A stretch of 64,000 bases of DNA from an uncultured Chloroflexia bacterium (GCA_963751575.1 CAVVUX010000002.1:367984-431983); one strand, 5' to 3'; numbered from the stretch's first letter, positions 8,517 through 52,410 are shown. Translations and numbers: made by a program. The notes: a model not told the origin generated them from the sequence alone.

Positions 8517-10538
8517 ATGACTATTGTAATAATCCTGTTTTTTCTTCTTGTATTTATGTATCTGGCTTCATTTCAATTGTTGACCAGAAGAGAAAGTGCC
8601 GTCAAGGCGTTCCTGATCACGTTTGGCTGTACAGCGGTGATAACAGAATTCTTGTCCCTATTTGACCTGCTGACTGTCCAGGCAGTTTTCGCTTCCTGGT
8701 GTGGTCTGATTGGATTGCTGGGAATACTGTTCCTTCGAAAGCTGAAGGATGGTAATTGGAAATTTACCAGAGTCAGATCTATCTTTAATCTCGCTGGGTT
8801 GAAAGATCTCTCCCTCCTTGAGAAATTCATTATTCTATCTATTTTGAGCATCTTGATCTTGACTTTTCTGATTGCTATTTATTCACCTCCGAACAATTTT
8901 GACTCGATGACCTATCATATGGCTCGAGTTGTCCATTGGATTCAACAGAAAAGTGTAAGTTTTTATCCAACATCGATCCCAAGGCAAAATCATTCCATGC
9001 CTCTGGTTGAGTATTTGATACTTCATCTTCAACTGTTAAGTAAATCTGATCAGTATGCCAACCTGGTCCAGTGGGCAGGTTTTGTGATCTTGATATTGCT
9101 TGGATCAGAATTTACACGATTATTTCAGGTATCCAGGAAGGGGCAATTGCTGGCAGCTCTCTTCGCAGCCACCATACCGATGGCAATCCTGCAGAGCAGC
9201 AGTACCCAAAACGATCTGATTGTGAGCGTATTTTGTGTAAGTTTTGCTTATTATTTATCACGGATCCTACAATCACCGACGAGGGATGAGACTGTTTTTG
9301 GTGGTCTGGCCTTGGGTCTGGCACTTTTAACCAAGGGAACAGCTTATATATTTTGTGCAAGTATAGGTCTGGTCTATGGTTCAGTCAGTTTAATCAGGCA
9401 AACACAGGAAATCAGAATTAAACTCATCAAGAGTTATTTCCTGATGATTATGTTGGCACTGATATTGAATGTTGGTTTCTATCAAAGAAATTTCAACCTT
9501 TACGGGAATCCCCTTTCCACTGAAACTGAAAGGATAACAGTTGATAATCTAACACTTGGAGGATTATATTCTAATCTGGTCAGGAACTATTCCGCGCACC
9601 TGGCTGTTCCGATTCCAGCCCTAAATGAGAAACTCTCAAGTGAGGTGTCCACTTTACTCGGTGATCTTGCTGACCATCCGGCTTATACATTTTCTGGCAC
9701 ACAATTTAAGATCCACTTCTTAATTAATGATGATCATTCTGGCAACCCGATCCATTTATTATTGATCTCGCTCCTAATCTTGCTGATTCTAGCGAACAGG
9801 AAAAAAAGGATCAGGATATTGATACGCACATTGGAGCAGTAATTCTTTCTGTCCTGCTCTTTTCATTACTTTTAAAATGGCAGCCTTGGGGCACCCGGCT
9901 TCAATTGCCGATCTTTTTTCTGGGAGCTCCACTCTTTGGTATTTTCTATGACAAAACGCACCGCTCTAAATATCTACCCTATTTGCTTTGTTTGCTATTG
10001 ACGCTTTATTCACTGCCGTTCGTTTTCTTAAATGCTTCCAGACCGTTGATACCTTTATTTAGCCAGGAATCACCCCTGAGGTCAAATCGAATCAAACGGT
10101 TCTTTTCAGATCGACCTAACAGGTATACAGAATATTATGAGATCATCCGTCCGTTTTTAAGAGATATTGGTATTCTCCACACGGATCGGACAGATTCCTC
10201 TACTTTTCTGGGACCAAATGGGATTATTAGAAGACTATCTCCTAGTGATGGATGCGGTAAACGTGATTGAATGAAGATTATTATGGATTGTATCTGGGTG
10301 AAAATGATTGGGAGTATCCAATCTGGGTTTTGTCTGAGCAGACTGATCCCAGCAGGATTTCCAAAATTCATTCACGTCAGATGTTGGGGATTTATCTCCC
10401 GCACCTTGAACAGGCGATTCTGATTTTTATCCGGATTATGTCATATCGACCGAGCAATCAGGGTCTGATTGGTTAGATGCCAATCAGTATGAAATTATTG
10501 TAGATACAAAATCGATCGATCTTTATCAGAAGCGCTGA
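8517..10538 (+). pseudogene. polytopic GT-C-like membrane glycosyltransferase (PMT_2/GT39-like), frame-disrupted
   Basis: The frame-0 ORF 8517-9842 is multi-TM and contains NNFDSMTYHMARVVHW. The protein-like sequence continues in frame 2 from the A7 run 9801-9807 (..KDQDIDTHIGAVILSVLLFSLLLKWQPWGTRLQLPIFFLGAPL). It moves to frame 0 after T5 10154-10158 (LLFWDQMGLLEDYLLVMDAVNVIE), then to frame 1 (EDYYGLYLGENDWEYPIWVL). It returns to frame 0 after T5 10424-10428 (FYPDYVISTEQSGSDWLDANQYEIIVDTKSIDLYQKR, stop 10536-10538). Confidence 0.65.
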
Positions 10539-10570
10539 GTTAGGGACTCTTGAAGAATTAGTTATCGAGC

Positions 10571-10622
10571 TTGACACGATGTGAAAACACTCTATAATTC
10601 AATTATTGAATTTTAGAGTGTT
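10571..10622 (+). promoter_or_regulatory. near-consensus promoter with overlapping palindromic operator upstream of wzm
   Basis: TTGACA (10571-10576), 16-nt spacer, TATAAT (10593-10598). The inverted repeat AACACTCTATAATTCAA / TTGAATTTTAGAGTGTT (10586-10602 / 10606-10622) pairs at 16 of 17 positions around a 3-nt centre and includes the -10 hexamer. Confidence 0.7.
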
Positions 10623-10651
10623 CGTTTTCAAGGAACCACGATGATTTTCTG

Positions 10652-11521
10652 GTGTACAACAAAAAAATAGGTAATCTTATGGCACAGTCTGATCTAAAAA
10701 TACCCCAAATAATTATCGATGCCGATCAAGAGAACCGGAAAATTATCAATTGGCGGGAACTTTGGCAGTATAAGGACCTGTTCTTTTTTTTGGTCTGGCG
10801 GGATATTAAGACCAGGTATGCCCAATCGATCCTGGGAGTGGGTTGGGCTATTATCCAGCCGGTATTTTCAATGATTGTGTTTACTATTGTTTTTGGAAAT
10901 TTAGCAAAAGTCAATTCGGAGGGGGTACCCTATGCAATCTTCAGCTTTACAGCCTTGGTGCCCTGGACTTTTTTCTCTACATCGCTAACAAGTGCCAGTG
11001 GAAGCCTGATCAGCTCTCAACGCTTGCTTACCAAAGTCTATTTCCCAAGATTAGTGATCCCAATTGCACCTGTCCTGGGGAAGCTGGTCGATTTTGGGAT
11101 AGCTTTTCTGATACTGCTCGGTTTAATGGTTTGGTACAAAGTGACACCAACGATCTGGTCCTTACTTGTCCCGGTCTTTGTGCTCTTAATGGCGCTAACT
11201 GCTGCCGGAGTGGGAATGTGGCTGACAGCCCTGTCGATCCAATACAGGGATATTCGGTATGGCGCTGATTTTTTTGTTCAGTTGTTATTATACGCTTCGC
11301 CCGTTATCTATGCGACCAGTATCATTCCTGAAAAATTCCAAATCCTGTACGCTTTGAATCCTATGGTAGGAGTAATCGAAGGTTTTCGAGCTGCCCTGCT
11401 GGGTACTCGGTCTATGCCTTGGGAGTTTTTAGGAATTGGCACCTTAATGTCAATCGCATTTTTCCTCAGCGGGGCATTGTATTTTCGATCGATGGAACGC
11501 TATTTTGCTGATGTAGCCTGA
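10652..11521 (+). CDS. wzm: ABC-2 type polysaccharide/O-antigen export permease
   Basis: 289-aa multi-TM ORF with an ABC-2 permease layout, directly followed by an ABC ATPase gene. The alternative start ATG 10679 (MAQSDL) is plausible. Confidence 0.8.
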   Translation: MYNKKIGNLMAQSDLKIPQIIIDADQENRKIINWRELWQYKDLFFFLVWRDIKTRYAQSILGVGWAIIQPVFSMIVFTIVFGNLAKVNSEGVPYAIFSFTALVPWTFFSTSLTSASGSLISSQRLLTKVYFPRLVIPIAPVLGKLVDFGIAFLILLGLMVWYKVTPTIWSLLVPVFVLLMALTAAGVGMWLTALSIQYRDIRYGADFFVQLLLYASPVIYATSIIPEKFQILYALNPMVGVIEGFRAALLGTRSMPWEFLGIGTLMSIAFFLSGALYFRSMERYFADVA

Positions 11522-11546
11522 TTATCAAGTATACAGAAGAATTTTT

Positions 11547-12839
11547 ATGTCCAAAAACGTTATCAAAGTTGCCAATTTATCTAAACGGTACCGGATCGGA
11601 TCTGAAAAACTGTCCCGGGATACGCTGGCTGAAGTTTTCTCAGATTGGGTGACCAGACCAATCAAAAATTTACGCAGGTTGAGAAAGCTGACCCAATTCG
11701 ATCAAGTTGATCAGCAAGAAGATGATATTGTCTGGGCTCTTAAGGATGTCAATTTTGAAGTGAAGCCTGGAGAGGTAATTGGAGTTATTGGTAAAAATGG
11801 AGCCGGGAAGAGCACATTATTAAAGATCCTCAGCAGGATCACGTATCCGACGCAGGGCAGGGTAGAGCTGAACGGAAGGGTCTCAAGTTTGCTGGAAGTG
11901 GGAACCGGATTTCATCCAGAATTGACTGGTCGGGACAATGTTTATTTAAATGGAACGATCCTGGGGATGACCAGGACAGAGATCGATCGGAAATTTGATG
12001 AAATAGTCGAATTCTCAGGAATTAAAAAGTTCATCGACACACCGGTCAAGTTTTATTCAAGCGGGATGGGCGTCAGGCTGGCATTTTCAGTCGCAGCTCA
12101 CCTAGAGCCTGAAATATTATTAATCGATGAGGTTCTTTCCGTTGGTGATGCAGCCTTCCAAAAGAAATCCCTGGGTAAAATGGAAGAGGTATCCGAACAA
12201 GGTAGAACGGTGTTATTTGTCAGCCACAACATGGGTGCTGTCCGGTCACTTTGTACCCGGGGATTACTGCTAGAAGATGGTTGTCTGACCCTGGACGCAG
12301 ATGTGGACAACGTGATCAATACCTACTTATCAAGCAAAGATGTATCTTCATCCGGGAGCTTAGCCTGGACCGAGGCGGATGCTCCGCGAGATGCAGAATT
12401 AATCCTATTTGGGATACAGGTTGTATCTGAATCGGGAGATGTCAAGACTGCATATCAGATCGATGAGGGTTTTAAGATCAAAATTCATTACCAGATCCTG
12501 GAGGAAGTAAAAAACCTCCGCTTGTATCTCCGTTTTAAATCAACCATGAGCGAAACTATCTTTGCCACTTATGAGGATTCGCAGATCCAGGAAGGGTTTA
12601 ACCGCAAGCCTGGACATTACACAGCAGTCTGTAAGATTCCACCCAATATTCTTAATAATCTGACCTACCGGATCTATATTGGTTTTGATTCTCCGGGCAA
12701 TAAAGTGTTGATACCCGGGAAAGAATATCTGGAGGTTGATATTGTCGATACATCGGATGGCTATCGTTATGACAGGGATGCTTTTGATGGACCTGTCCGT
12801 CCGGTATTCGATTGGCATGTTGAAGAACGAGGCAGGTAA
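11547..12839 (+). CDS. wzt: polysaccharide/O-antigen export ABC ATPase with C-terminal carbohydrate-binding-type domain
   Basis: Walker A GKNGAGKST, signature-like YSSGMGVRLAF and Walker B LLIDEVLSVGD. About 175 extra C-terminal residues (after ~aa 255) are beta-rich, as in Wzt_C-type domains. Confidence 0.85.
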   Translation: MSKNVIKVANLSKRYRIGSEKLSRDTLAEVFSDWVTRPIKNLRRLRKLTQFDQVDQQEDDIVWALKDVNFEVKPGEVIGVIGKNGAGKSTLLKILSRITYPTQGRVELNGRVSSLLEVGTGFHPELTGRDNVYLNGTILGMTRTEIDRKFDEIVEFSGIKKFIDTPVKFYSSGMGVRLAFSVAAHLEPEILLIDEVLSVGDAAFQKKSLGKMEEVSEQGRTVLFVSHNMGAVRSLCTRGLLLEDGCLTLDADVDNVINTYLSSKDVSSSGSLAWTEADAPRDAELILFGIQVVSESGDVKTAYQIDEGFKIKIHYQILEEVKNLRLYLRFKSTMSETIFATYEDSQIQEGFNRKPGHYTAVCKIPPNILNNLTYRIYIGFDSPGNKVLIPGKEYLEVDIVDTSDGYRYDRDAFDGPVRPVFDWHVEERGR

Positions 12840-12860
12840 GGATCAGGGAAAGAATAAGCC

Positions 12861-13751
12861 ATGAAAATCATTTATTTTACTAAAGGTGTCAGGGGCAGCA
12901 AATGCCTGGAGCATATCCTGGAAAATGGTTTCCAGATTGGTGCGGTGATCGGAGTTATTCCCGAAATCGAGATCCAAAAACTGAGTGAACAGTTTGATTT
13001 TCCGGTTATATTCCTGGACAAGATCAATTCACCCGAATCCGTTGCCCGCCTAAAAGTATTAGAGGGGGATTTATTTGTCCTCTGTGGTTATAACAAAATC
13101 ATCAAAAACCAGGTAATCGGGATACCGCCACTGGGAACGATAAATTTGCATGGTGGAAAATTGCCAGAATACAGGGGTGCAGCTCCAATCAACTGGCAGA
13201 TCATCAACGGGGAAAAGACCGGAGGTTGCGCCATCATCTTCGTCGATGAGGGCATAGATACAGGGGCTATCATCACTCAGGAGATGTATCCTATCTCTGA
13301 TCAAGATACCCACGCCAGCATCCTTGCTAAAACTCTGAATATATTCCCCCGGTTGCTGGTTGATGTCCTGAGACAGGTTGAGGAAGGAACTGTGAATGCA
13401 GTTCCCCAAGACCCAAAAGCGGGTGGCTACTTTGGTCGGAGATATCCCAGTGACAGCCAGATCGATTGGGAAAATATGACAGATCTCCAAGTGCATAACC
13501 TTGTCCGCGGTATGCATGGGCCATACCCATCAGCTTATAGTTTCAGGGAAAGGCAAAAAATCGAAATTGAAAAAACGGAATTACTGATTGATTCTGTATC
13601 AGGATCACCAGGGACAGTAGCCCAGATCCGGGGCACTGGAGCGATTATCACAGCGTGTAATAGGGGATTATTGGTCAAGGATTTACGAGTCAATGGAGAA
13701 AAATTCGACCCCGCTGCAATCTTGAATGCAGGGGATAAGTTAATTTATTAG
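12861..13751 (+). CDS. formyltransferase (Fmt/ArnA-N-like; probable sugar N-formyltransferase)
   Basis: Formyl_trans_N signature INLHGGKLPEYRGAAPINWQIINGE and FVDEGIDTGAII, followed by a C-terminal Fmt-like subdomain. It lies next to DegT aminotransferase and SDR genes. Confidence 0.8.
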   Translation: MKIIYFTKGVRGSKCLEHILENGFQIGAVIGVIPEIEIQKLSEQFDFPVIFLDKINSPESVARLKVLEGDLFVLCGYNKIIKNQVIGIPPLGTINLHGGKLPEYRGAAPINWQIINGEKTGGCAIIFVDEGIDTGAIITQEMYPISDQDTHASILAKTLNIFPRLLVDVLRQVEEGTVNAVPQDPKAGGYFGRRYPSDSQIDWENMTDLQVHNLVRGMHGPYPSAYSFRERQKIEIEKTELLIDSVSGSPGTVAQIRGTGAIITACNRGLLVKDLRVNGEKFDPAAILNAGDKLIY

Positions 13752-13771
13752 CAAAACAGAGGATGGATTAG

Positions 13772-14749
13772 ATGAGTAAAGTGCTGATAACAGGTGGAGC
13801 AGGGTTTATTGGATCCTATGTGAGCAGAAAACTGCTCGATCAAGGCCATGAAGTAATTATCTATGATGCTTTTGTCCACTATATATCGCCCTTAAAGAGC
13901 GTTTTAAAGGATTTCACAGAACTGCGTTTCGAGGGGATAGCCGACCAGATCGATTTCCGGCGGGGCGACACACGGGATAAAGCGCATCTTCGCAGGATTA
14001 TTCTCGAAACCAAACCGGATCATATCCTTCATTTAGCAGCATTACCGATTGCAGATCTATCCAACAGGCACTCAGAAGAAGCCCTTGCCAGCATTCTTGA
14101 AGGAGCTGTGAATGTTCTGGAGGTACTTAGGGATGTAGATTTCGTGAATAGATTTGTCTATATATCATCATCTATGATTTATGGTGATTTTGAACAGGTT
14201 CCTGCTCCGGAGGATCATCCCAAGCGGCCGAAAGATATCTATGGTGGAACCAAATATGCTGGAGAAATACTGACCGAAACATACAGCAGGCGCTATAACA
14301 TCCCCTACAGCATCATCCGTCCCTCAGCAGTTTACGGCCCCTTCGACGTCAATCGCAGAGTAAGCCAGATCTTTGTGGAGAATGCCTTACTTGGAAAACC
14401 GATTACTCTTTATGGTGGCGGGCGCCAGGTACTGGATTTCACTTTTGTGGAAGACATAGCAGATGGGATCATCAAGGTTATGTTTTCTAAGAAAGGTTTG
14501 GGAGAAGCGTTTAATATTACTTACGGTTTGGGATACACTTTGCGGGAACTGGCTGATATCTTGCTAACTCATTTTGAGGATCTTGAAATAAAAATTGTTG
14601 AAGAAGAAGATGTATTCCGTCCCAAACGCGGTGCGCTGTCGATTGAAAAAGCAAAATCTCTGGTCGGATATGACCCCCAATATTCGCTTGATGCTGGCAT
14701 TCAGCGCTACCTGGATGTTTATCAAAACCTTGCGGTGTTCAAGAAATAA
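13772..14749 (+). CDS. NAD-dependent epimerase/dehydratase (extended SDR)
   Basis: GGAGFIGS Rossmann motif and YGGTKYAGE (YxxxK); 325 aa. Confidence 0.75.
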   Translation: MSKVLITGGAGFIGSYVSRKLLDQGHEVIIYDAFVHYISPLKSVLKDFTELRFEGIADQIDFRRGDTRDKAHLRRIILETKPDHILHLAALPIADLSNRHSEEALASILEGAVNVLEVLRDVDFVNRFVYISSSMIYGDFEQVPAPEDHPKRPKDIYGGTKYAGEILTETYSRRYNIPYSIIRPSAVYGPFDVNRRVSQIFVENALLGKPITLYGGGRQVLDFTFVEDIADGIIKVMFSKKGLGEAFNITYGLGYTLRELADILLTHFEDLEIKIVEEEDVFRPKRGALSIEKAKSLVGYDPQYSLDAGIQRYLDVYQNLAVFKK

Positions 14750-14774
14750 TATCAGTGAATCTCAGGAAAAATCT

Positions 14775-15905
14775 ATGCGAAAAATTCCCTTATGCATTCC
14801 CTATACAGGGCAGGAAGAGAAAGATGCTGTTTCTCAAGTCATCGATTCAGGTTGGTATGCCCACGGACCCAAGAACCATGAGTTTGAAGAAGGTTTTGCA
14901 AAATATCTTGGTGTAAAGTATGCCTTTTCTATGAATTCATGTACATCGGCTTTACACCTGGCAGTAGAAGGCCTGGGGATAACCGGAGAGGTGATCGTTC
15001 CCAGTTTTACTTTTGTTGCTTCAGCAAATGCAATCATAACTGGTGGCGCTCGTCCAGTTTTTGCAGACATTAATTACGACACATGCAATATTAGTACAGA
15101 ATCTATCGAAAGATTGATCAATCCTGACACCCAGGCAATTATGCCAGTTCATTACGGGGGACAGAGTGCCGATATGACGGCGATCATGCAGCTTGCAGAA
15201 AAATATAAATTACACGTTATTGAAGATTCGGCTGAGACAATTGGCGGTACTCATCATGGAAAAATGGCTGGTTCCTTTGGTGTGGGCTGTTTCTCGTTTT
15301 ATCCCACAAAGAACCTCACCACCGGCGAGGGGGGGATGCTGACCACAGATAACGACGATCTTGCCGGTAAGGTCAAAGCCCTCCTGGCACACGGTATTGA
15401 CAAATCAACCTATGAGCGGGAGGCTAAGGAAAAATCATGGTTCAGAGCTGCGAGTCTGATCGGCTATAACTTCAGGATGTCAAATATCCTGGCTGCTATC
15501 GGTGTTGAACAGCTTAAAAAACTTCCCGAGATGAATCGGAAGAGACAGGTTAATTCGGACACTCTGACCAAGGGATTAAGTTCGATTCCAGGCGTTCAGG
15601 TCCCGACTGAAAAACCAGAAAACAAGCATGTCTATCAGATGTATACCATTCGAGTGAACCCGGACATCAGGGATGATTTTGTGCGGCAGCTGAATTCCCG
15701 GGATATTGGGGCCTCGATCCATTTCTTCCCGCCCGTGCACGAAATGGTCCCGTACAGGGGACCAGAATTCAGGAAAGATGATTTGCCAGTGACAGAAAAG
15801 GTAATCAGAGAGATCGTTACCCTGCCTATGTATCCCCAGATGGAAGAAGAGGATATTTCTTATCTGGTTGATTCTGTCAAAGAAACACTTTTAAATCTGG
15901 GGTAA
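14775..15905 (+). CDS. DegT/DnrJ/EryC1/StrS-family sugar aminotransferase
   Basis: MRKIPLCIPYTGQEEKDAV is a typical N-terminus, and FSFYPTKNLTTGEGGM contains the PLP lysine. The track ORF begins at 14595, but that extension overlaps the previous gene, so ATG 14775 is preferred. Confidence 0.85.
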   Translation: MRKIPLCIPYTGQEEKDAVSQVIDSGWYAHGPKNHEFEEGFAKYLGVKYAFSMNSCTSALHLAVEGLGITGEVIVPSFTFVASANAIITGGARPVFADINYDTCNISTESIERLINPDTQAIMPVHYGGQSADMTAIMQLAEKYKLHVIEDSAETIGGTHHGKMAGSFGVGCFSFYPTKNLTTGEGGMLTTDNDDLAGKVKALLAHGIDKSTYEREAKEKSWFRAASLIGYNFRMSNILAAIGVEQLKKLPEMNRKRQVNSDTLTKGLSSIPGVQVPTEKPENKHVYQMYTIRVNPDIRDDFVRQLNSRDIGASIHFFPPVHEMVPYRGPEFRKDDLPVTEKVIREIVTLPMYPQMEEEDISYLVDSVKETLLNLG

Positions 15906-15907
15906 TT

Positions 15908-17206
15908 ATGCGGGTATTGCATGTTAATACAACCTCTCACTTGGGGGGGGCAGCTCGGGCGATGAGGAGATTCAGCCAGGCCCTGATCAAAAAGGGACAC
16001 CAGTCTCAGTTCCTTGTGGGACGAAGCAAATATCCTGAAGACCCTGACATTCACTTGATCTGGAATCAGGTTAGCGAATACCGCACTCTGCCTAACAGCC
16101 TGATCTCCAGGATTGGAAACCAGCTCGAAAAATATATAGGAATCAATTCCTGGTCCAACCGTCCCAATCTAAGATTACCTGATACCGACCTTTACAAGTG
16201 GTCAGATATCATCGATCTGCGCAATTTATTCGGTGGTTATTTCAATCTCTGGGTTTTGCCTCTATTAACAACTGGAAAACCAGTTGTTTGGAGGCTGCCA
16301 GATATGTGGGCAGTCACAGGACACTGCTCTTATCCTTATGATTGTGAACGCTGGAAATCAGGCTGTCATGATTGTCCATTATTGACAGCTCAAGGCCGGC
16401 TGAAGGTAGAACCTCCACCAACTCATTGGGATGGAACAAAGCGTGTTTGGCGCGCAAAAAAGGCCTTATATCAGGAGTCACAACTGCACATCATTGTCAC
16501 CACGGAATGGATGCGCGACCAGGTTTCCCAGAGCATACTTGGGAACGCAAGATCGATCAGCGTCATCTCGAATGGTGTGGATCTGGATGTTTATCAGCCC
16601 ATCAATAAAAAACAAGCCCGAGCAGATTTGGGACTTCCGCTTGATGAGAAGATCTTGCTTTGGTCAGCTCATAGAAAGGGAGCCTATCGGAAAGGTTTTC
16701 GGGTGGCAAATGAGGCAATGAAGATCCTACAGAATAATAATCCATTCGCACCGATGTTTATTACCATGGGCAGTCAGGAAAGATGGAACGAACCTGAGAT
16801 GCTGAGTAAATATAAACATTTTGGATTTGTCGAAGAACCTGAAAATCAAGCTTTAATTTATGCTGCTGCTGATGCGTTCTTATGCACCACGCTTGCTGAC
16901 GGGCAACCTCAAACGGCTTTGGAATCTATGGCTTGTGGAACCCCTGTGATCGCATTTGATCTTGGGCCAATGCCAGAAGAAGTTATTGACGGGAGAACAG
17001 GATTCATAGTTCAAACTCAGGATCCAGAGTCCCTTGTAGTTGGTATTGAAAGATTTCTAGATAATTTTGATAGGCTTCCGGTTCTGCAAACTAACTGCCG
17101 CCAGCAGGCTCTCGAGAAATATGATCTTGATCAGCAGGCAGAAAAATACATCAGCCTGTATTCTAGGATCTTGAAAGAGTACCCAAGCATAAATGGCCAA
17201 AGCTAA
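15908..17206 (+). CDS. glycosyltransferase, GT-B fold (GT4-like)
   Basis: MRVLHVNTTSHLGGAARA is a typical N-terminus. The C-terminal donor-binding block is ADGQPQTALESMACGTPVIAFDLGPMPEEV. Confidence 0.75.
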   Translation: MRVLHVNTTSHLGGAARAMRRFSQALIKKGHQSQFLVGRSKYPEDPDIHLIWNQVSEYRTLPNSLISRIGNQLEKYIGINSWSNRPNLRLPDTDLYKWSDIIDLRNLFGGYFNLWVLPLLTTGKPVVWRLPDMWAVTGHCSYPYDCERWKSGCHDCPLLTAQGRLKVEPPPTHWDGTKRVWRAKKALYQESQLHIIVTTEWMRDQVSQSILGNARSISVISNGVDLDVYQPINKKQARADLGLPLDEKILLWSAHRKGAYRKGFRVANEAMKILQNNNPFAPMFITMGSQERWNEPEMLSKYKHFGFVEEPENQALIYAAADAFLCTTLADGQPQTALESMACGTPVIAFDLGPMPEEVIDGRTGFIVQTQDPESLVVGIERFLDNFDRLPVLQTNCRQQALEKYDLDQQAEKYISLYSRILKEYPSINGQS

Positions 17207-17249
17207 ACCGGGGAAAAAACTTGATCTGCAATAGGATTCTAGTCCGAAG

Positions 17250-18329: not shown

Positions 18330-18370
18330 GGCAGACCCCCAGCAGGGATCAGCGGCAGAGTCAGCAGTTC

Positions 18371-18415
18371 TTGACCTGATACCAATCTAGTGTATAATTC
18401 AGTGACTGAATTATA
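18371..18415 (+). promoter_or_regulatory. promoter with overlapping perfect palindrome upstream of the MarR-like regulator
   Basis: TTGACC (18371-18376), 16-nt spacer, TATAAT (18393-18398). The perfect inverted repeat TATAATTCAGT-G-ACTGAATTATA (18393-18415) starts at the -10 hexamer. An RBS TAGGAG lies at 18421-18426. Confidence 0.7.
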
Positions 18416-18435
18416 GATTATAGGAGCGATTGTAA

Positions 18436-40382: not shown

Positions 40383-40384
40383 TA

Positions 40385-42803: not shown

Positions 42804-42886
42804 CAAGGTGCCCCTCAAATCGACCCCTGAGGATTGGGGAAATTTATCCAAGCTGGCCGGGAATTAATCTTGATCGAGGACCTCCC

Positions 42887-44612: not shown

Positions 44613-44638
44613 CCGACCATTTTCAGGAGAATCACCTT

Positions 44639-45697
44639 ATGGAAGAGTGGAGATTTCAAGAGAAAATTATCAAGTTCATCAAGACCTGGCCGAATATGGT
44701 CCTTGTTTTTATCGGATCAGGAATGCTCGCTGGTCTACTGGTATTATTTATTTCCCTCCAGTTCAAAAGGCGACAGCAGAATTTTATCTTGGGATAGATA
44801 TGACCCGGGTATATGATGTCTCATCCCTGGCATCTTACGCGAAATCTGAACCATTTAATATTGACGACTATAAAAATTGGCAGCTTTCTCAGGTTGATTC
44901 TATCGCTACGTCAGATTGGATTGCCGATCAGGTCCTTGAGGAACTCAAGAATCAGGACCTCTACTGGGAAGATCTAACGGTTACCGATTTTATTAGTATG
45001 CAGGATATTGATTGGTATGATGTGGGGGTTTGGAAATTGAGGATTCATGACCGGGATGGAAAATTGGCCTTGGATGGAGTTGAGGCTTGGAGGGATGTCC
45101 TGCTCAAGGAGTTAAATGTTCTGATCATAGAAAGTGAGGATGTTCTCGCTATTGATGGTCGCCTGAGGGCTGTAAATCAAGAACTTGTCAATCTTGCGAT
45201 CCGACGGAGTGAGTTAGAGCAGCTTGATGAGAAATCTAGAATCCACCCTAGCTATCTTGGAGGCACTGAATCCTGAGGAAAAATTACCTGAACCAACGAG
45301 AGAGGATTTGTGGGATCTGGTCGCAGTCAGCGCATCCGATGACCTTCTGTGGGAAAAGACCATGCTGGAATTTCCTGCTCCAGGACAACCTGTCGCGGCC
45401 ATGACTGATTGGCTGATTGTGGTTTTAGCCCGGGGTATGAAGGAGAAAGACCAGAATCTAGAAATCAGATTATCTCTGGAAAATGATCTGGAGGTTATTT
45501 TGGGGGATTACAGGGAAGAAATTGAACAAGCTCAAGGCTTGTCATCCAGCTTATATGTTGAGAAACAGGCTGCAGATCCATATTTGGAGACCTATTACCC
45601 CGCCAGTGTTGTGGGCCTGATTGGCAGTTTCGTTGGTTTACTCGTCTATATCATCGTTTGGGTGATGCAGTCTGAAATGCGAGCGGAAAAGAAATGA
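44639..45697 (+). pseudogene. Wzz-like polysaccharide chain-length determinant (PCP) protein, two frame disruptions
   Basis: The RBS CAGGAGA precedes ATG 44639: MEEWRFQEKIIKFIKTWPNMVLVFIGSGMLAGLLVLFISL (TM1). A -1 shift at ~44755 gives VQKATAEFYLGIDMTRVY.. and a coiled-coil-like middle. A +1 shift at ~45235 leads to the C-terminal TM VVGLIGSFVGLLVYIIVWVM. Confidence 0.5.
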
Positions 45698-47184
45698 TCA
45701 AGAAGTTAGCTAGATCGATCTCTGTGATACTGATGGCTGGCGTTTTCCTTTCTTTGCCAGTTACGAATTTTCCGTACTTCCCGTCCAGTATTGGTGGGAA
45801 CTCTGTTCTTGTCAGACCTTTGCTTATCTATCCTCTCGCGGGTCTTGTCCTACTGCTCGTGATTCCCCGATTGATATCTAAGGCAGTCCCACGGCCGGTG
45901 CTGATAATAATCTTGTTTTTCATTTGGGGAGTGGTTGTTTCAATCCTGCCGATATTATTGGGGGTAACTTCGCCTTGGAAAGAAGTTTCCCTGATTCCGA
46001 GAGAGATCAGAACAATATTCACTCTGGTGTTGGGAATATTGCTTTACTTGTCAATTAGTCTCTACCCACAGACTAGATCAGATCTTCGAACATCCCTGAA
46101 ATGGCTCTATGGCGGATTGCTGCTGGTCTTAATTTGGGGAACGATGCAGGCCCTCTATACGCTGGATCTTGTGCCAGGATGGTTTGAGCTGATGAGTAAT
46201 GCGCAGCAATTCATTTCTGCAAAATCTCTTAACCCCGACCGAATTTCTGGAATGACTTATGAACCAAGCGCATTTGCAGATCAATTGGTTGTGATCTGGC
46301 TGCCATGGATAAGCGCAGCCAGCTTGAATAATTACACTGTATATGTTTGGCGGTGGAAATGGATAACCATTGAAAGGATATTAAGCGCCTGGACTTTAAT
46401 TATCCTCGCCTTTACTCTTTCTCGGACGGGTTTAATTCTCGGTGTGGGAACCATACTATTTGGGGTTTTGATCAGTTTCAGAAAAATCCCGCAAGGGGAT
46501 GAACAACATGACTGCAACTCACAAAAAGACCCTCCTTTGTTAAGGATGGTAAGAGAATACCGAATCCTACTTATCCTATTTGGCGTTGTTGGTTTTTTAA
46601 TAATATTCTATTTGTTGGGTACCCAGGTTGCTTATATTAATCGGGTGTGGGAATACTTTTCGCTGAACAGGGAGTTTGACTTAAGGAAGTATTTCAACTA
46701 TATTGGTTTTGGTGCGAGGGTTACCTACTGGGAAACCGCCTGGCGGATATTTTTAGATTTTCCTATTTTTGGTGTTGGACTGGGAAATTTCGCAATTTAT
46801 TTTTCAGATTATGTCCCCTTCCAACATCTGGTAATAACACCAGAACTTTTACTTCGCCTGGTTCCATCGAGCGGACGGTCCCGGGTAGTCTCTGTAAAAC
46901 ACTTTCTGATCCGGATCCTGGCAGAAATGGGCTTGGTTGGATTTGGGATCTTTATGGTATTTTTGATAGTCCTGGGGTTAATGGGATTGTATTTATGGCG
47001 GTCCAGGAATGAAGAAGACCATTTTTGGGGCACAGCGGCACTGATTGGTCTTGTTGCGTTTATTGGAGATACTTTCTCTTTCGATTCATTTGCTATTCCA
47101 AATCCCTGGGTATTGTTTGGACTGATAACTGCCGCATTTTCAGTCCTGAAAAATAAAATTATCACTGTGAGAGGAAATGGATAA
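45694..47184 (+). CDS. O-antigen ligase/polymerase-family membrane protein (Wzy_C-like)
   Basis: 496 aa and multi-TM, with a loop containing AFTLSRTGLILGVGT, typical of the O-antigen ligase family. The start overlaps the upstream stop. Confidence 0.7.
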   Translation: MIKKLARSISVILMAGVFLSLPVTNFPYFPSSIGGNSVLVRPLLIYPLAGLVLLLVIPRLISKAVPRPVLIIILFFIWGVVVSILPILLGVTSPWKEVSLIPREIRTIFTLVLGILLYLSISLYPQTRSDLRTSLKWLYGGLLLVLIWGTMQALYTLDLVPGWFELMSNAQQFISAKSLNPDRISGMTYEPSAFADQLVVIWLPWISAASLNNYTVYVWRWKWITIERILSAWTLIILAFTLSRTGLILGVGTILFGVLISFRKIPQGDEQHDCNSQKDPPLLRMVREYRILLILFGVVGFLIIFYLLGTQVAYINRVWEYFSLNREFDLRKYFNYIGFGARVTYWETAWRIFLDFPIFGVGLGNFAIYFSDYVPFQHLVITPELLLRLVPSSGRSRVVSVKHFLIRILAEMGLVGFGIFMVFLIVLGLMGLYLWRSRNEEDHFWGTAALIGLVAFIGDTFSFDSFAIPNPWVLFGLITAAFSVLKNKIITVRGNG

Positions 47185-49201
47185 ACAACAGAAAATTATT
47201 GGTTTGATCGTTATTGGTATCGTCTTGTTTAGCTGCATATGTCTGGCTTGCGGTCTGAGCATATTTGGATTGACCAGTTGGCTGGGGATTAAAGAATACT
47301 CAACATCAGAAACGACAGAGGTTGAGGTGATATCTCCTGCAGCACCTAACCTGGCTCATGATTCTGAACAATCTGGTGAGGTTTATTCATCAACCTTGGA
47401 AACTCTAAATAATGTTGAGATTCCAGTCAATGATCCCTTGGATATTGCTCAGCGCTTGGAAGGAAAGGAAAATATACCCCTGACGCTGCCTGTTGAGAAT
47501 CTCAATCGCCAGGTAGGCGAAAAAGAAAGTTTCTGGGTCACCAATACAGACAGTGCAGAAAACTTCCAGGTCCAGACGACATTGGCCGCTGTTACAGATC
47601 ACCTGTATTTTTGGATTGAAGATGGTGTGGATTATTCCCAGAACGCCCTGGACAAATTAGCCAGAGAATTTGAGGATGTCATCTATCCAATTAATCAGGA
47701 ATTTTTTGGCTCGGAGTGGTTTCCGGGAGTGGATGAAGATCCGCACCTCTATGTGATTTATGCCCGGGGTTTAGGAAATAACCTGGCAGGATACTACTCT
47801 TCGATTGATGAATATCATCCCCTGGTTCATGAATTCTCCAATGCTCATGAAACCTTTATGCTCAGTGCGGATAATGCCGGATTGTCTGAAGATTATACTT
47901 ATGGTGTCTTGGCCCACGAATTCCAGCACATGATCCATTGGTATCGAGACCGCAATGAGACTTCCTGGCTTAATGAAGGGTTTTCTGAACTTTCTACTTT
48001 GTTAACAGGACAGCGAGACGGGCCAACTCACGATTATTATTTTGCGGATAATCCAGACACTCAGCTTAATGACTGGCCGAATAATCCCAACGAAACCATA
48101 CCCCATTATGGGAATGCGTTCTTATTCGTGACCTATTTTATGGACAGGTTTGGCAGTGACGCTACCAAAGCCCTGGTCGCCCATAAACTAAATGGACTTC
48201 AGAGCATTGATAATGTACTGGAAAGTATGGGTATGTTCGATCCGGATACTGGAAATCTCATCACTGCCGATGATGTTTTTTTGGATTGGGTGGTCACAAA
48301 CTATCTCAAAGATCAATATAACGTTACAGAGCGGTTCAGCTATTCATCTTATCCTGCTGCTCCGAGCTTCTACCCCACTGAGACTATAGAAAGCTGCTCA
48401 ACCGATGAACTCAAGCGAGATGTGCATCAATACGCTGCTGACTATATCGAATTGTCCTGCCTGGAGGATTTTTCACTCCACTTCACAGGCCAGCAAAGTG
48501 TTCAAGTCATTCCGGAAAATCCATACTCTGGTTCCTTTGCATACTGGTCTAATAAGGGTGATCATTCGGACATGCGTCTGACCCGTGAATTTGATTTCAG
48601 TGATGTCAGCGGACCGATCACGCTCAAGTATTGGACCTGGTATGATCTGGAAGAGGATTATGATTATGTTTTCCTTGAGGTTTCCAGCAATGGCGGTGAT
48701 TGGAGAATCATCAGGACTCCCTCAAGTACTTCTGATAACCCATCAGGGAACAGCTATGGTTGGGGTTACAACGGCCTTTCAGGGGGAGATGGAAGCTGGA
48801 TCCAGGAAGAAGTGGATCTATCAAGGTATGCGGGCGAAATCATTAAAATCCGGTTTGAATATATAACAGATGCCGCAGTCCATGGTGAAGGATTGCTGCT
48901 GGATTCGATCTCAGTACCTGAAATTTCTTATTTCACTGATTTTGAAACTGATAGTGGTGGATGGATACCAGAGGGGTTTGTGAGGATTGAAAATAAACTT
49001 CCCCAGACTTATCGTTTGGCTCTCCTTCATCTGGGTGCTGTTCCCCGGGTCGAGTACTTATCAATAACCGATGGAAACGATGTTGAAATACCCGTATCAC
49101 CGGGAGCCACCGGATCCAGTTCCACTATTTTAGTTGTTACAGGAACTACCCGCTTCACCAGGCAAACAGCCAGTTACTGGTTTGAGCTCACAGAAAAATA
49201 A
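47177..49201 (+). CDS. membrane-anchored gluzincin-type zinc metalloprotease with C-terminal beta-sandwich domain
   Basis: N-terminal TM IIGLIVIGIVLFSCICLACGLSIF, and zinc site VLAHEFQHMIHWYRDRNETSWLNEGFSE (HExxH ... NEG..E). The C-terminal block WTWYDLEEDYDYVFLEVSSNGGDWRII...IKIRFEYITD resembles InhA/MAM-like domains. It overlaps the ligase-like gene by 8 nt. Confidence 0.65.
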   Translation: MDKQQKIIGLIVIGIVLFSCICLACGLSIFGLTSWLGIKEYSTSETTEVEVISPAAPNLAHDSEQSGEVYSSTLETLNNVEIPVNDPLDIAQRLEGKENIPLTLPVENLNRQVGEKESFWVTNTDSAENFQVQTTLAAVTDHLYFWIEDGVDYSQNALDKLAREFEDVIYPINQEFFGSEWFPGVDEDPHLYVIYARGLGNNLAGYYSSIDEYHPLVHEFSNAHETFMLSADNAGLSEDYTYGVLAHEFQHMIHWYRDRNETSWLNEGFSELSTLLTGQRDGPTHDYYFADNPDTQLNDWPNNPNETIPHYGNAFLFVTYFMDRFGSDATKALVAHKLNGLQSIDNVLESMGMFDPDTGNLITADDVFLDWVVTNYLKDQYNVTERFSYSSYPAAPSFYPTETIESCSTDELKRDVHQYAADYIELSCLEDFSLHFTGQQSVQVIPENPYSGSFAYWSNKGDHSDMRLTREFDFSDVSGPITLKYWTWYDLEEDYDYVFLEVSSNGGDWRIIRTPSSTSDNPSGNSYGWGYNGLSGGDGSWIQEEVDLSRYAGEIIKIRFEYITDAAVHGEGLLLDSISVPEISYFTDFETDSGGWIPEGFVRIENKLPQTYRLALLHLGAVPRVEYLSITDGNDVEIPVSPGATGSSSTILVVTGTTRFTRQTASYWFELTEK

Positions 49202-49210
49202 GAGATAGCA

Positions 49211-49236
49211 TAAACTCCCTGGAAACAGGGAGTTTA
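49211..49236. terminator. hairpin between convergent genes (putative bidirectional terminator)
   Basis: TAAACTCCCTG-GAAA-CAGGGAGTTTA forms a perfect 11-bp stem with a 4-nt loop and is followed by TTATTATT. It lies between the protease stop (49201) and the minus-strand ytxH-like stop (49294). Confidence 0.6.
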
Positions 49237-49293
49237 TTATTAACCAGGATTTGTGATCTTCTGGTTTAGCAAAAGTTCGGAATCAAGATCAGA

Positions 49294-49506
49294 TCAATCG
49301 GCCTTGATTAATTCATCCAGATACAGCTCAAGTTCTTCTCGTTTTTTCTGGGCAGCGTCCTTGATCTCAAGCTGGATTTGATCAGCCTGTTTTTTTATCG
49401 AGAACCTTAACTCTTCCCCAGAATAGGGAGCGAACAGCAGAGCAGCTAAACCACCTAAAACTCCTCCCAGTACTGCGCCAAGTGTAAATGCCAATGCTTT
49501 TCTCAT
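49294..49506 (-). CDS. YtxH-domain small membrane-anchored protein
   Basis: 70 aa, with a Gly-rich N-terminal helix LGAVLGGVLGGLAALLFAPYSGEELR followed by a charged amphipathic helix. Confidence 0.6.
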   Translation of the reverse strand: MRKALAFTLGAVLGGVLGGLAALLFAPYSGEELRFSIKKQADQIQLEIKDAAQKKREELELYLDELIKAD

Positions 49507-49597
49507 CTAACAATCTCCTTTCAACAATCTAATCAATGTTAATTATAATTGGTCTTGAGGAAAAAGGGACCTCCGCTTCCCGCTTTTGGAGTTATTG

Positions 49598-50614
49598 ATG
49601 ATAGATAATAAACTTCCGCTATTGGATCTTCACCGGCATCTGGATGGGAGCATACGCCTCGAAACCATTCTGGATTTGGGTAGAAAACACAAGATTGATT
49701 TGCCTGCTGATAACCTGGAGGGTTTGCGTCCCTTTGTCCAGGTCACAGATCCCCGGCCGGGAGTGATGGCATTTATTGATAAATTTCAATATATGGTAGG
49801 AGTCTTGGCAGATTATGATGCCTGCAGACGGGTTGCCTATGAAAATGTCGAGGATGCCTACCTGGAGGGTATTGATTATATTGAACTCAGGTTCAGCCCG
49901 TTGTTTATGGCTGAACCACATGGCTTGGACCCCGCAGGCGTTGTTGAAGGAATTCTCGAAGGCGTCCATCAGGGCCGGGCTGATTTTGATATCAAAGTAA
50001 ACTTAATAGGTATCATCAGCAGAACCTATGGACCTGATCGGGGATGGCAGGAACTGGAGGCTTTATTGGCGTATAAAGATCAAATTATTGCTCTGGATCT
50101 GGCAGGAGATGAAGTAAACTTTCCGGGAAAGCTGTTTGTTGATCATTTCCGGGAAGGTCAGGATGCTGGTTGGTATATTACTGTGCACGCCGGAGAAGAA
50201 TCTGGCCCGGACAGCATCTGGCAGGCAGTAGAGGAATTGAATGCGGTTCGGATCGGACACGGAGTGAGCGCCGCCAAAGATCCGCAATTGATGGATTTCC
50301 TCGCCGACAACGAAATAGGCATTGAATCAAATCTAACTAGCAATCTGCAAACCAGGGTAATTGATAATTATCTGGCCCATCCTTTAAGGAAATTTCTTGA
50401 AAACGGGATTTTGGCGACAATTAACACCGATGATCCAGGGATCAGTGCGATTGATCTGAAATATGAATATGACCATGCTGCTCCAGCTGCTGGCCTCTCA
50501 CCGGATATGATCCAGCAAGCTCAGCAAAATGCAGTCAAGATTGCCTTCCTCGAACAGGAAGATAAAATTACCTTACAGAAAAAAGCTATTGGGAGAACGA
50601 ATTCGAATGAGTAA
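49598..50614 (+). CDS. add: adenosine deaminase
   Basis: LPLLDLHRHLDGSIRLETILDLG is the metal-binding HxH N-terminal motif, with HAGE and TINTDDPG also present. The ORF is open from TTG 49586; ATG 49598 is the likely start. Confidence 0.85.
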   Translation: MIDNKLPLLDLHRHLDGSIRLETILDLGRKHKIDLPADNLEGLRPFVQVTDPRPGVMAFIDKFQYMVGVLADYDACRRVAYENVEDAYLEGIDYIELRFSPLFMAEPHGLDPAGVVEGILEGVHQGRADFDIKVNLIGIISRTYGPDRGWQELEALLAYKDQIIALDLAGDEVNFPGKLFVDHFREGQDAGWYITVHAGEESGPDSIWQAVEELNAVRIGHGVSAAKDPQLMDFLADNEIGIESNLTSNLQTRVIDNYLAHPLRKFLENGILATINTDDPGISAIDLKYEYDHAAPAAGLSPDMIQQAQQNAVKIAFLEQEDKITLQKKAIGRTNSNE

Positions 50615-51356
50615 ACAAGTTATTCTGTCGGTGGGTATGCCCCGGGCAGGTTCAGGATGGTACTACAATCTAACCCAGGACCTGGTGATTGCAGCTGGCG
50701 GTGTCGACGCCAAAATAATTCGATCCAGATATGGTTTGAATAAACTCTTAACACAAGTGAATTGCAATCTGGGAACATTGAGCAGTTATCGCCTGATCCC
50801 GGTTCTCGCCCCCTTGATCTTTGAACCCGGCTATGTGATTAAACTGCATGCTGGAAGACGCCCTCTCGCAGATCAGCTCATCAAATTAGGAGTGATAAAA
50901 CCAACCTTCATCTTTCGGGATCCGAGAGACTGTTTGCTTTCAGCATATGAAAATGGCCAGCTGATGTCTTCCCAAGGAATGACCAATGCATTTACACCTT
51001 TAAAGACTCTGGATGATGCAATTATGTTCATGGATTTTTATGTCAAAGTAGCCCGGGAGTGGATTGCCCAACCAGATACAATGGTTGTGAAATACGAGGA
51101 TTTAAAGGGTAATTACGATCAGGAAACTAGCCGCCTGATTGCTTTCCTGGGAGTTGACCCAGGCGATGTGAATGTTAAACGCATTCTCAATCAGTATCGT
51201 CCAGATCAGAAACCAAACAAGAAGCCGGGACTTCATTTTTCCAAGGGAAAGGTAGGCCGCTACCAGGAAGCATTCACGCCGGATCAACTGAATTTGTGTG
51301 AAAAGTTATTCGGTGATTTTTTGGTAGAGCACGGATATGAAAACTCACTCAGTTAA
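50607..51356 (+). CDS. sulfotransferase
   Basis: MSKQVILSVGMPRAGSGWYYNL is 5'-PSB-like and FIFRDPRDCLLSAY is 3'-PB-like. ATG 50607 overlaps the add stop by 8 nt. The track start at 50529 is an upstream extension. Confidence 0.75.
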   Translation: MSKQVILSVGMPRAGSGWYYNLTQDLVIAAGGVDAKIIRSRYGLNKLLTQVNCNLGTLSSYRLIPVLAPLIFEPGYVIKLHAGRRPLADQLIKLGVIKPTFIFRDPRDCLLSAYENGQLMSSQGMTNAFTPLKTLDDAIMFMDFYVKVAREWIAQPDTMVVKYEDLKGNYDQETSRLIAFLGVDPGDVNVKRILNQYRPDQKPNKKPGLHFSKGKVGRYQEAFTPDQLNLCEKLFGDFLVEHGYENSLS

Positions 51357-51487
51357 ATACGATCGGATCTGGTGCCTTATCAACTTCGGATGCCGAGTGG
51401 ATTTAAACGATAATAGAAAGCTGCAATTAAAACCTGCAGTGAAGCAGATCCAGGACCATTTGATGATGAATATGGAGATTACTTGGG

Positions 51488-52410
51488 ATGAATGAGAATA
51501 ATGTGAAACCTATATTAGTGACTGGAGCACATCGTTCTGGGTCTACCTGGGCGGGAAATATGATTTCATCACCCCCGGACATCGCTTATGTGAATGAACC
51601 TTTCAATATCCTGTATAAACCTGGTTCTTGCCGACCGCATTTCACTCATTGGTACACATACGTCTGCGACGAGAATGAATCCCTCCATTTTAAGTATATT
51701 GAGGACTGTCTGAGTTATAAACCGCGCATGTTTAACAAAGTTCTCAAACACGGGTCTCTGAGAGATCTGCCGAGGATATCAAAATTCCAGATTGAGTGTT
51801 ATAAAGCCCGGTTGCTGGGTAAAAGGCCCCTGATGAAGGATCCATTGGCAGTTCTCTCCAGTGAATGGCTGGCGAACGTTTTAATATGGATGTCGTCATC
51901 CTGATCAGACATCCAGCCGCATTTGTTGGTAGTCTGAAAGTTGCAAACTGGCCATTTCCTTTTTCCGATTTATTAAATCAACCACTTCTGATTGAACAGC
52001 ATTTTTCAAGGTATGAATCAGAAATATCGGAATACGCAGAAAATGAACGTGATCTAATCGATCAGGCTATTTTCCTCTGGAACTTGATCTATTCGATGGT
52101 ACTGAAATATAAGGTGAAGCATGGAGATGATTGGATCTTCATCACTCATGAGGACCTATCACGCTCTCCCCTCGATGAATTCAAGAAAATATTTAAGAAA
52201 CTTGAAATACCATTTACGGAACAGGCAGAAGGCAGAATTACCAAATATTCTTATGCAGATTCAAGAAATGAAGACAGCAGTATTCGTGACAGCAAATCCA
52301 ATATTTGGAAGTGGAAGAAAAGACTAACGGATGATGAAATTACTCGGGTTAGAGAGCGGACGTTCGAGATCTCAAAAAATTTTTATGCTGAGGATGACTG
52401 GCTCAGCTGA
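51488..52410 (+). pseudogene. sulfotransferase (paralog of 42887-43835), one frame disruption
   Basis: KPILVTGAHRSGSTWAGNMI, then a -1 shift at ~51872 (..LSSEWLA | ERFNMDVVILIRHPAAFVGSLKVANWPF). The C-terminus is WKWKKRLTDDEITRVRERT. Confidence 0.7.

Follow-up and report, generated by a model that had tools for sequence, protein, structure and literature searches.

Frameshifts in a surface-glycan locus of an Anaerolineales metagenome-assembled genome are probably local consensus errors

Interrupted genes of the glycan locus

The window, a stretch of 64,000 nucleotides, harbours a glycan locus in which several glycosyltransferase, sulfotransferase and nonulosonate genes are interrupted by frameshifts. 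Four metagenome lineages of relatives supplied intact orthologues, which were aligned protein-to-DNA onto the window; in this frameshift-aware alignment 15 genes were found to contain 42 insertions and 9 deletions, a total of 51 indels that break the reading frame (Table 1). The fragmentation is already evident from a plain ORF map of the window, and adjacent ORF pieces match continuous Pfam coordinates (adh_short 1–118 and 116–192, NeuB 1–137 and 134–241, GT2 1–84 and 70–128). The original prediction had listed about 35 shifts in about 15 genes; the same 15 genes were recovered, and the events turned out to be more numerous. Given this ratio of insertions to deletions, its estimate that three quarters of the shifts go in the +1 direction is close to correct or a little too low.

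Thirty-three other genes of the window (11,121 codons) showed no event, even under a lax frameshift penalty. The regions 10.6–23 kb, 35.27–39.5 kb and 45.7–51.4 kb as well as the flanks are clean, in line with the earlier statement. Among the event-free genes are pathway partners of the broken ones, namely Sat-CysC, three sulfotransferases, a GT2 and a Wzy-like gene. A 16th broken gene had been suspected in the ORF-free stretch 442–2281. By frameshift-aware alignment, the minus strand of this stretch encodes a GAF-PAS histidine kinase that is intact and runs past the window start, and the flanks can therefore still be regarded as clean. An Rfam scan of the window gave no matches.

Table 1. Interrupted genes and dense event tracts in the window. 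Positions are counted from the first nucleotide of the window.
Feature	Position	Strand	Length and evidence	Events
GT-C (PMT_2) glycosyltransferase	8517–10535	+	full length ~670 aa; Pfam	5: deletion ~9804 (A7 run); insertions ~10190, 10266, 10348, 10412
Gene of unknown family with Glyphos_transf-like tail	23082–24507	+	474 aa; nucleotide (L087, L088) and protein-to-DNA alignment	1: inserted G at 24264
Class I methyltransferase	25849–26755	+	~300 aa; Pfam; alignment with P0384–P0386	1: inserted T at ~26021–26023
Second GT-C-like gene	27078–28705	+	531-aa orthologue	5: insertions 27350, 27450, 27744, 27932, 28363
Short-chain dehydrogenase (SDR)	30667–31489	+	273 aa; Pfam continuity; L001 and L002 alignment	1: insertion ~31087
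NeuA-like cytidylyltransferase–HAD hydrolase fusion	31483–32715	+	~406 aa; Pfam; identical events via L001 and L002	4: insertion ~31975, deletion ~32222, insertion ~32401, deletion ~32417
NeuB nonulosonate synthase	32718–33622	+	301 aa; Pfam pieces; L087, L001 and L002 alignments	1: deletion ~33222
Capsule_synth-like gene	33663–35274	+	534 aa; nucleotide alignment to L087; three orthologues concur	9: insertions 33732, 34084, 34389, 34490, 34649, 34802, 35159, 35233; deletion 34064
MptE-like gene	39530–40382	+	282 aa; L083 nucleotide and protein-to-DNA alignment	3: insertions 39887, 39943; 2-nt insertion at 39976
Third GT-C (PMT_2)	40385–41891	+	501 aa; nucleotide and protein-to-DNA alignment	5: deletion 40495 (C6 run), insertion 40715, deletion 40867, insertions 41028, 41821
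GT2 glycosyltransferase	41869–42890	+	338 aa	5: insertions 42158, 42727, 42793, 42847, 42870
Sulfotransferase	42887–43835	+	314 aa	4: insertions 42897, 43049, 43661, 43727
GT2 glycosyltransferase	43829–44612	+	260 aa	3: insertion 43889, deletion 43975, insertion 44460
Gene of unknown family	44639–45697	+	351 aa	3: insertions 44743, 44751, 45232
Sulfotransferase	51488–52410	+	~307–319 aa; Pfam pieces; L083 and L084 alignments	1: deletion ~51875
Dense tract	9804–10412
Dense tract	26023–28363
Dense tract	31087–35233
Densest tract	39887–45232		5.3 kb; from inside the MptE-like gene to inside the 44639 gene	23

The window's intact proteins and the fragments are all found on one 1,556,757-bp NCBI/ENA contig of an Anaerolineales metagenome-assembled genome (MAG); the sequence was therefore deposited in broken form. 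For the first GT-C gene the deposited fragment is P0263 (428 aa), and the 395-aa fragment of the 23082 gene falls into one cluster with intact 474-aa proteins. The size of this MAG contig, the one indication of the platform, suggests that the assembly was probably built from long reads. Comparison with orthologous loci in related genomes, which had been proposed as a check, showed all 15 genes uninterrupted and in the same order, in fully syntenic loci, in four other lineages (L001/L084–86, L002, L083/L089 and L087). The second GT-C-like gene is 91% identical to its L087 counterpart at the nucleotide level and 90% identical at the amino acid level once frame-corrected, and the sequences flanking the G inserted at 24264 are identical in L087 and L088. 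Homologues of the methyltransferase comprise 305–316 aa. Among the relatives the glycan locus varies in its cassettes and has diverged in a mosaic fashion.

The fragment proteins were found on the source contig only, in a collection without a further assembly of this species (the best non-self match of Sat-CysC is 92% identical). P0258, which shares a 90% cluster with one of the fragments, belongs to a different lineage and does not represent a second, independent record of the strain. A scan of metagenome contigs for the exact pattern of one site gave no match to either form, the one containing the extra base or the one lacking it.

Distribution of events and state of the coding sequence

The events are clustered far beyond chance. 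They hit 15 of 57 genes, compared with 31.8 expected (5000 shuffles, minimum 24), and their dispersion index is 3.1 compared with a null maximum of 2.0, which bears out the strongly non-random placement seen originally. Within the dense tracts, which are 0.6–5.3 kb long, one event occurs per 120–390 nt. The clean stretches between them at 28364–31086 (2.7 kb) and 35234–39886 (4.7 kb) would be highly improbable under the within-tract rate (P = 3e-5 and 2e-8). Tract boundaries fall within genes. All five events of the 8517 gene, for example, are confined to its final 36% (P = 0.006); no event was found in the first 1290 nt when the gene was aligned to the 670-aa L089 orthologue and to L005. Thus, the tracts ignore gene borders. 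Divergence from relatives, compared along the window, followed no consistent rule as a tract marker: identity is higher at 40.5–45 kb and 27–28.9 kb, lower at 9.5–10.5 kb and ordinary elsewhere. A mosaic of two haplotypes was sought through the heterogeneity of identity among the segments between events, and clean control regions proved equally heterogeneous, so that this test is uninformative.

After frame correction no in-frame stop codon was present in approximately 5,300 codons, in agreement with the earlier observation that segments between shifts contain almost none. The TGA formerly assigned to the 39530 gene is not an in-frame stop; it falls between events, where a short stretch is out of frame. 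Amino acid identity to the orthologues after correction was 0.70–0.93, matching that of the intact neighbours. Pooled dN/dS amounted to 0.10–0.13 for the broken genes and 0.08–0.09 for the intact genes, and of the sites invariant in two relatives, 7.1% are altered in the broken genes of the window and 7.4% in its intact ones. The damage consists of indels only; the coding information is otherwise unharmed and shows no signs of decay.

These data bear on the idea, put forward in the original prediction, of a recent module-specific inactivation. Here, genuine and very recent pseudogenization by approximately 50 indels would have killed the three GT-Cs, the nonulosonate genes, several GT2s and sulfotransferases, likely under selection to change or lose the surface glycan. 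The indels are indeed present in the deposited record and restricted to glycan genes, inactivation classically strikes surface-glycan loci (the O-antigen cluster of Yersinia pestis is one example), and the surrounding 40+ kb are free of errors, which indicates that the assembly is not generally poor. Nevertheless, we consider this explanation improbable. If substitutions outnumber indels by approximately 5–20 to 1, true pseudogenes should contain tens of stop codons, whereas the 51 indels are accompanied by no nonsense mutation and no excess of amino acid changes. Pseudogenization would also be expected to leave a mixed spectrum of lesions (nonsense mutations, deletions at least as frequent as insertions, slippage contexts) spread over gene and pathway regardless of physical tracts. 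Instead, insertions prevail at sites that are not slippage sites, up to nine events occur in one gene and none in adjoining genes of the same pathway, and tracts start and end inside genes. No other assembly in the collection, which comprises none from the same species, carries the fragments.

Indel spectrum and origin of the frameshifts

Insertions exceed deletions by about 5:1. Of the 38 single-base insertions, 30 are unlike the base on either side (run length 1). Natural 1-bp indels in bacteria are biased towards deletion and driven by slippage; the insertion excess at non-slippage sites is the opposite of this pattern. Changes in homopolymer run length account for two of the 51 events, in A7 9801–9807 and C6 40493–40498. 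All homopolymers quoted in the original prediction exist, but a true change of run length is limited to these two; the G5 at 34493 and the A7 at 43737, for instance, are merely close to an event. Overall, four of 115 runs of at least six bases have an event no more than 3 nt away, and inside the tracts 22 of 26 such runs are read correctly. The events therefore do not concentrate in homopolymers as in the classical Nanopore R9 or 454 signature, and this missing link, unlike in residual R9 errors, taken by itself speaks against an artefact.

Regulated frame switching had been named as a less likely possibility, either as programmed ribosomal frameshifting or as phase variation at slippery repeats. 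Phase-variable switches are typically located in glycan genes, and the two events in the A7 and C6 runs would suit such a mechanism. However, phase variation usually involves one shift per gene in a slippable repeat of approximately seven or more bases, and here several events occur per gene, 49 of 51 lie outside repeats and only 9804 (A7) and 40495 (C6) qualify. Programmed frameshifting would require a conserved shift site with a slippery or stimulatory motif, but the sites are conserved in none of the orthologues, which are continuous ORFs throughout, and no sequence motif common to the event sites was seen when their contexts were judged by inspection. The chance that the frameshifts are regulated is practically negligible.

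The identity of the inserted bases provides a hint of their source. In 59% of the events the inserted base corresponds to a synonymous alternative allele of a neighbouring base, compared with 38% under the null (P = 0.012), and in 34% versus 19% it is both synonymous and a transition (P = 0.026). It equals a neighbour in 25%, compared with approximately 41% for random insertions (P = 0.05). The null consisted of random insertions re-aligned with the same aligner, as a null without re-alignment inflates significance; even so, the allele-like signature is modest, with P values of 0.01–0.07 over four correlated tests. Such allele-like bases suggest that reads of co-occurring strains were perhaps merged into one consensus.

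Taken together, we regard the frameshifts as consensus or polishing errors in the deposited, presumably long-read MAG, local to a few stretches of 0.6–5 kb, with a probability of roughly 0.85 as judged from the sequence. In this respect the consensus errors considered originally are favoured by the indel-only damage, the undamaged coding information, the 1.56-Mb MAG contig, the intact relatives and the tracts that cross gene borders. Gene-fragmenting consensus indels have been documented for long-read genome and metagenome assemblies, in which collapsed strains are common (PMC9262707, PMC8302730, PMC12313526). Elsewhere the window is free of flaws, and the cause of the errors must therefore be very local. 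The most likely candidate for this local cause is a mixture of strains, as hinted at by the inserted bases: within the tracts, reads of co-occurring, closely related strains would have been piled into one consensus, and a polymorphic site might then have been recorded as two adjacent alleles, yielding one added base. For the more specific proposal that strain-variable genes were collapsed, the allele-like bases (P ~0.01) offer a hint, but the genes are conserved and syntenic in four lineages. The broken genes are not obviously strain-variable, which speaks against a collapse of strains. Cross-mapping between paralogues was rejected as a cause, since the GT2 and GT-C paralogues of the window are only about 70% identical and thus too distant for confusion. 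We know of no documented polisher behaviour that yields a 5:1 excess of insertions, and the exact technical mechanism is therefore conjecture.

An artefact might also have arisen without any mixing of strains, if the tracts were simply less well corrected and the indels represent ordinary residual long-read noise, as in long-read gap fills that join accurate short-read contigs of a hybrid assembly, at coverage dips or in stretches beyond the reach of short-read polishing. Such an origin fits the indel-only, tract-wise pattern with its sharp alternation of clean and dirty stretches, the unharmed coding information, and inserted bases that are compositionally balanced and share no motif. On the other hand, it explains neither why insertions match a neighbour less often than random ones nor why they mimic synonymous alleles. 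Residual long-read noise is also usually centred on homopolymers (PMC9262707), most of which are correct in the tracts. We therefore consider it possible but rather doubtful.

If the frameshifts are consensus errors, all 15 genes are most probably intact in the organism itself, as part of a conserved locus for a sulfated, nonulosonate-containing glycan. There is a very small chance that the indels are real, in the form of a very recent, tract-wise burst of non-slippage +1 insertions that, in an uncultured Anaerolineales population, silenced a third of the glycan locus and spared the interleaved genes; behind such a burst would stand a mutational or recombination-associated process of a new kind, acting locally and biased towards insertion. 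The biological weight of the frameshifts is otherwise small, as the locus is most likely intact in the organism. Their practical consequences lie in the public record, where the annotation of this MAG lists 15 genes as fragments or pseudogenes, which would be missed or miscounted in surveys of pangenomes, pathways and pseudogenes. Consensus errors in long-read MAGs can apparently localize tightly in surface-glycan loci and outside homopolymers, and a naive reading of such tracts would be module-specific gene loss. The doubling of alleles, if upheld on reads, would offer a simple way to recognize collapsed strain variation from the sequence alone.

Relation to known systems

The locus resembles the interrupted ORFs caused by consensus indels in long-read assemblies, as measured by the IDEEL test and addressed by frameshift correction with proovframe, in that 1-bp indels divide genes into adjoining pieces that overlap while coding is otherwise intact, on a megabase MAG contig and with full-length genes in relatives. 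It differs from the usual cases because the indels are packed into a few kilobase-scale tracts rather than spread contig-wide, and because they are mostly inserted bases unlike their neighbours rather than errors in homopolymer length.

With consensus sequences of collapsed strains, the target of Strainberry and other tools for strain separation, it shares local damage on an otherwise clean contig, inserted bases that resemble alternative and often synonymous alleles, and a locus with cassette variation and mosaic divergence among relatives. In contrast to these, a second haplotype is hypothetical here, and the genes hit by the events are conserved across lineages rather than specific to a strain.

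Inactivated surface-glycan clusters, such as the O-antigen cluster of Y. pestis, likewise show frameshifts in several genes of one glycan locus next to intact neighbours. Real clusters of this kind contain one or two lesions per gene, including nonsense mutations and deletions, and these are present in every isolate. Here, up to nine insertions per gene were found, without stop codons or relaxed constraint, and none of the other assemblies in the collection shows the lesions. Contingency loci of Campylobacter and Neisseria are on/off switches at slippery repeats. The window shares with such phase-variable genes the presence of frameshifts in glycosyltransferase and sulfotransferase genes, but differs in that only two of the 51 events lie in runs of at least six bases and many events occur per gene.

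Frame-breaking indels in the glycan locus

The ORF map of the window shows a nearly continuous gene series on the plus strand, with Anaerolineales/Chloroflexota MAG proteins as homologues. The left flank holds holB, pcrA/uvrD, tsaE, tsaB and genes for a uracil-DNA glycosylase and an epimerase, and the right flank pantothenate/CoA biosynthesis and further housekeeping genes. The glycan locus encodes three GT-C (PMT_2) enzymes, Wzm/Wzt for export, formyltransferase, aminotransferase and dehydratase genes, Gmd, a Sat-CysC fusion for PAPS synthesis, five or six sulfotransferases, NeuA-HAD and NeuB of the nonulosonate pathway, several GT2/GT1 enzymes, a Wzy_C-type protein and an InhA-like MAM protein. 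This combined gene content suggests a putative sulfated, sialic-acid-like surface glycan as product. Gene order of the ~45-kb locus is kept in several Anaerolineales lineages (loci L001, L002, L083, L084 and L089).

Features of the window
Feature	Position	Remarks
GAF-PAS histidine kinase	1–2055 (−), off window edge	left flank; intact
131-aa ORF	47–442 (+)	antisense to the histidine kinase gene; almost certainly spurious
Large glycan locus	8517 to ~53.6 kb (8517–53572)	Pfam
Tract 1	9804–10412	
Wzm, 280 aa	start 10679	by orthologues; ORF 10652–11521 called too far 5′
DegT aminotransferase, 376 aa	start 14775	by orthologues; ORF 14595–15905 called too far 5′
Truncated GT-C copy	25672–25845	~75% identical to 27078–27250
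Methyltransferase cassette	25849–27077	GC ~0.35 (0.43–0.47 elsewhere)
Tract 2	26023–28363	
In-frame insertion, 27 nt	28227–28253	27078 gene, versus L087
Tract 3	31087–35233	
3′ end of frameshifted 33663 gene	35151–35270	upstream of the sulfotransferase start
Sulfotransferase, 288 aa	start 35271	by orthologues; ORF 35151–36137 called too far 5′
Tract 4	39887–45232	

In the broken genes, named after their start positions, stop-to-stop pieces overlap end to end and Pfam profile coordinates run on from one piece to the next. The comparison with orthologous loci proposed in the original prediction was made with syntenic loci from four related lineages, in which every gene is intact: L001 and L084–L086 (JGI) and L002 (ENA), each with ~70% nucleotide identity, L083 and L089 (Anaerolineales_B10_G9, 80–82%, collinear with 964–20530 and 35678–52408) and L087 (JGI, 81–91%). 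Nucleotide alignments and a purpose-written frameshift-aware protein-to-DNA alignment yielded 51 events, comprising 42 insertions (one of 2 nt) and 9 single-base deletions, and the same events were recovered with independent orthologues. They fall in exactly the 15 genes originally listed as disrupted. The remaining genes had been described as unshifted, and the same aligner, run with a lax penalty, detected no event in 33 of them (11,121 codons). The non-random placement noted before was likewise evident: 15 of 57 genes were hit (expected 31.8, minimum 24 in 5000 shuffles) and the dispersion index was 3.1 (null maximum 2.0), so that clustering far exceeds chance.

The events form four dense tracts (one per 120–390 nt), together with isolated events at 24264, 26023 (also given as the start of tract 2) and 51875. 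Gene borders are not followed by the tracts. In the 8517 gene, the first 1290 nt are clean and five events follow (P = 0.006), while the last tract starts within the MptE-like gene and ends within the 44639 gene. The event-free intervals separating the tracts, which include Sat-CysC and five genes at 35.3–39.5 kb, are far too long under the tract rate (P = 3 × 10−5 and 2 × 10−8).

Origin of the frameshifts

The frameshifts are present in the deposited assembly, because fragments of 395, 181, 159, 138, 109, 92 and 428 aa lie on the same 1,556,757-bp NCBI/ENA contig as the window's intact proteins P0001 and P0121. A second assembly of the species was not found in the collections, where the best non-self Sat-CysC match was 92% identical; the best pcrA locus reached 78%.

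After frame correction, none of the 15 broken genes contains an in-frame stop. Their amino acid identity to orthologues (0.70–0.93) resembles that of intact neighbours, pooled dN/dS is 0.10–0.13 versus 0.08–0.09 in intact genes, and the window differs at 7.1% (broken) and 7.4% (intact) of residues invariant between L083 and L084 (Fisher P = 0.84). The damage is therefore indel-only, in agreement with the earlier impression that indels far outnumber substitutions and stops are almost absent. In bacterial mutation, substitutions exceed indels several-fold to twenty-fold, deletions outnumber insertions, and slippage in runs is the main source of 1-bp indels. On this spectrum, 51 real indels predict hundreds of substitutions, tens of stops, a deletion bias and homopolymer contexts; none of these four predictions holds. 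Hence genuine pseudogenisation, the inactivation considered originally, is improbable. The lesions imitate gene loss confined to particular modules of a surface-glycan locus.

Some shifts had been reported to coincide with homopolymers. This holds for A7 at 9801 and C6 at 40493, the only two true run-length changes; 22 of the 26 in-tract runs of at least six bases are read in frame. The inserted base was unlike both neighbours in 30 of 38 single-base insertions, and inspection of the site contexts by eye revealed no common motif. Phase variation and programmed frameshifting, forms of the regulated frame switching also proposed, fail their defining tests.

The frameshifts are best explained, likewise in line with one of the original proposals, by an artefact of consensus building or polishing that acted locally in a probable long-read metagenome assembly, given indel-only damage and intact orthologues in relatives. 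This leaves the insertion bias and non-homopolymer contexts unaccounted for, two traits in which the events depart from the classical pattern of Nanopore errors. If both alleles of a polymorphic site were written in tandem from co-assembled strains, an extra base would result and inserted bases resembling synonymous alleles would be in excess. For the null, inserted bases were removed, random bases were added at random coding positions and re-aligned with the same program, and both sets were scored identically. Inserted bases were a synonymous alternative allele of a neighbour in 59% (null 38%, P = 0.012), synonymous plus transition in 34% (19%, P = 0.026), a transition partner in 59% (45%, P = 0.07) and identical to a neighbour in 25% (41%, P = 0.05), in four mutually correlated tests with modest effects. 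This excess is as expected from allele-doubling by strain mixing, for which it is suggestive only; poorly polished fill-in stretches could also produce both peculiarities. The clustered frameshifts are most probably not a biological feature, and only a very slim chance is left for a real, tract-wise, insertion-biased mutational burst.

Variation of the locus among relatives

Independent signs of variation among close lineages come from gaps in L087, block-wise dS and the methyltransferase cassette beside a GT-C remnant. L087 is without 24597–27138 and 28928–32647; its 474-aa gene, GT-C gene and NeuB directly adjoin, and thus GFO, methyltransferase, Sat-CysC, SDR and NeuA are missing. Synonymous divergence from one single relative shifts in blocks (0.44–0.51 at 41.9–44.6 kb versus 0.75–1.08 alongside). 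Judged from these alignments, the glycan locus is probably a recombination mosaic.

The methyltransferase cassette is missing from L001, L002 and L087. Immediately left of the methyltransferase gene lies a truncated duplicate of some 60 codons from the start of the 27078 GT-C gene; it keeps L087-like upstream sequence and looks like a scar of cassette insertion or replacement, not itself a frameshift. The 27-nt insertion partially repeats the adjacent CCAAAATAATA and resembles a short tandem duplication. In the Illumina-assembled B10_G9, a sulfotransferase (L083 15831–16541) is called with 236 aa; its counterpart has 319 aa in L084 (15644–16603) and ~307 aa in the corrected window. A compensating deletion/insertion pair relative to the window (52181–52223) lies close to the L083 stop, where B10_G9 may itself be truncated or in error.

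Consensus indels that split genes, and the collapsing of strains, are known properties of long-read metagenome assemblies (PMC9262707, PMC8302730, PMC12313526). The frameshifts described here are of the same kind as this 'interrupted ORF' problem, but are unusually localised and insertion-rich.
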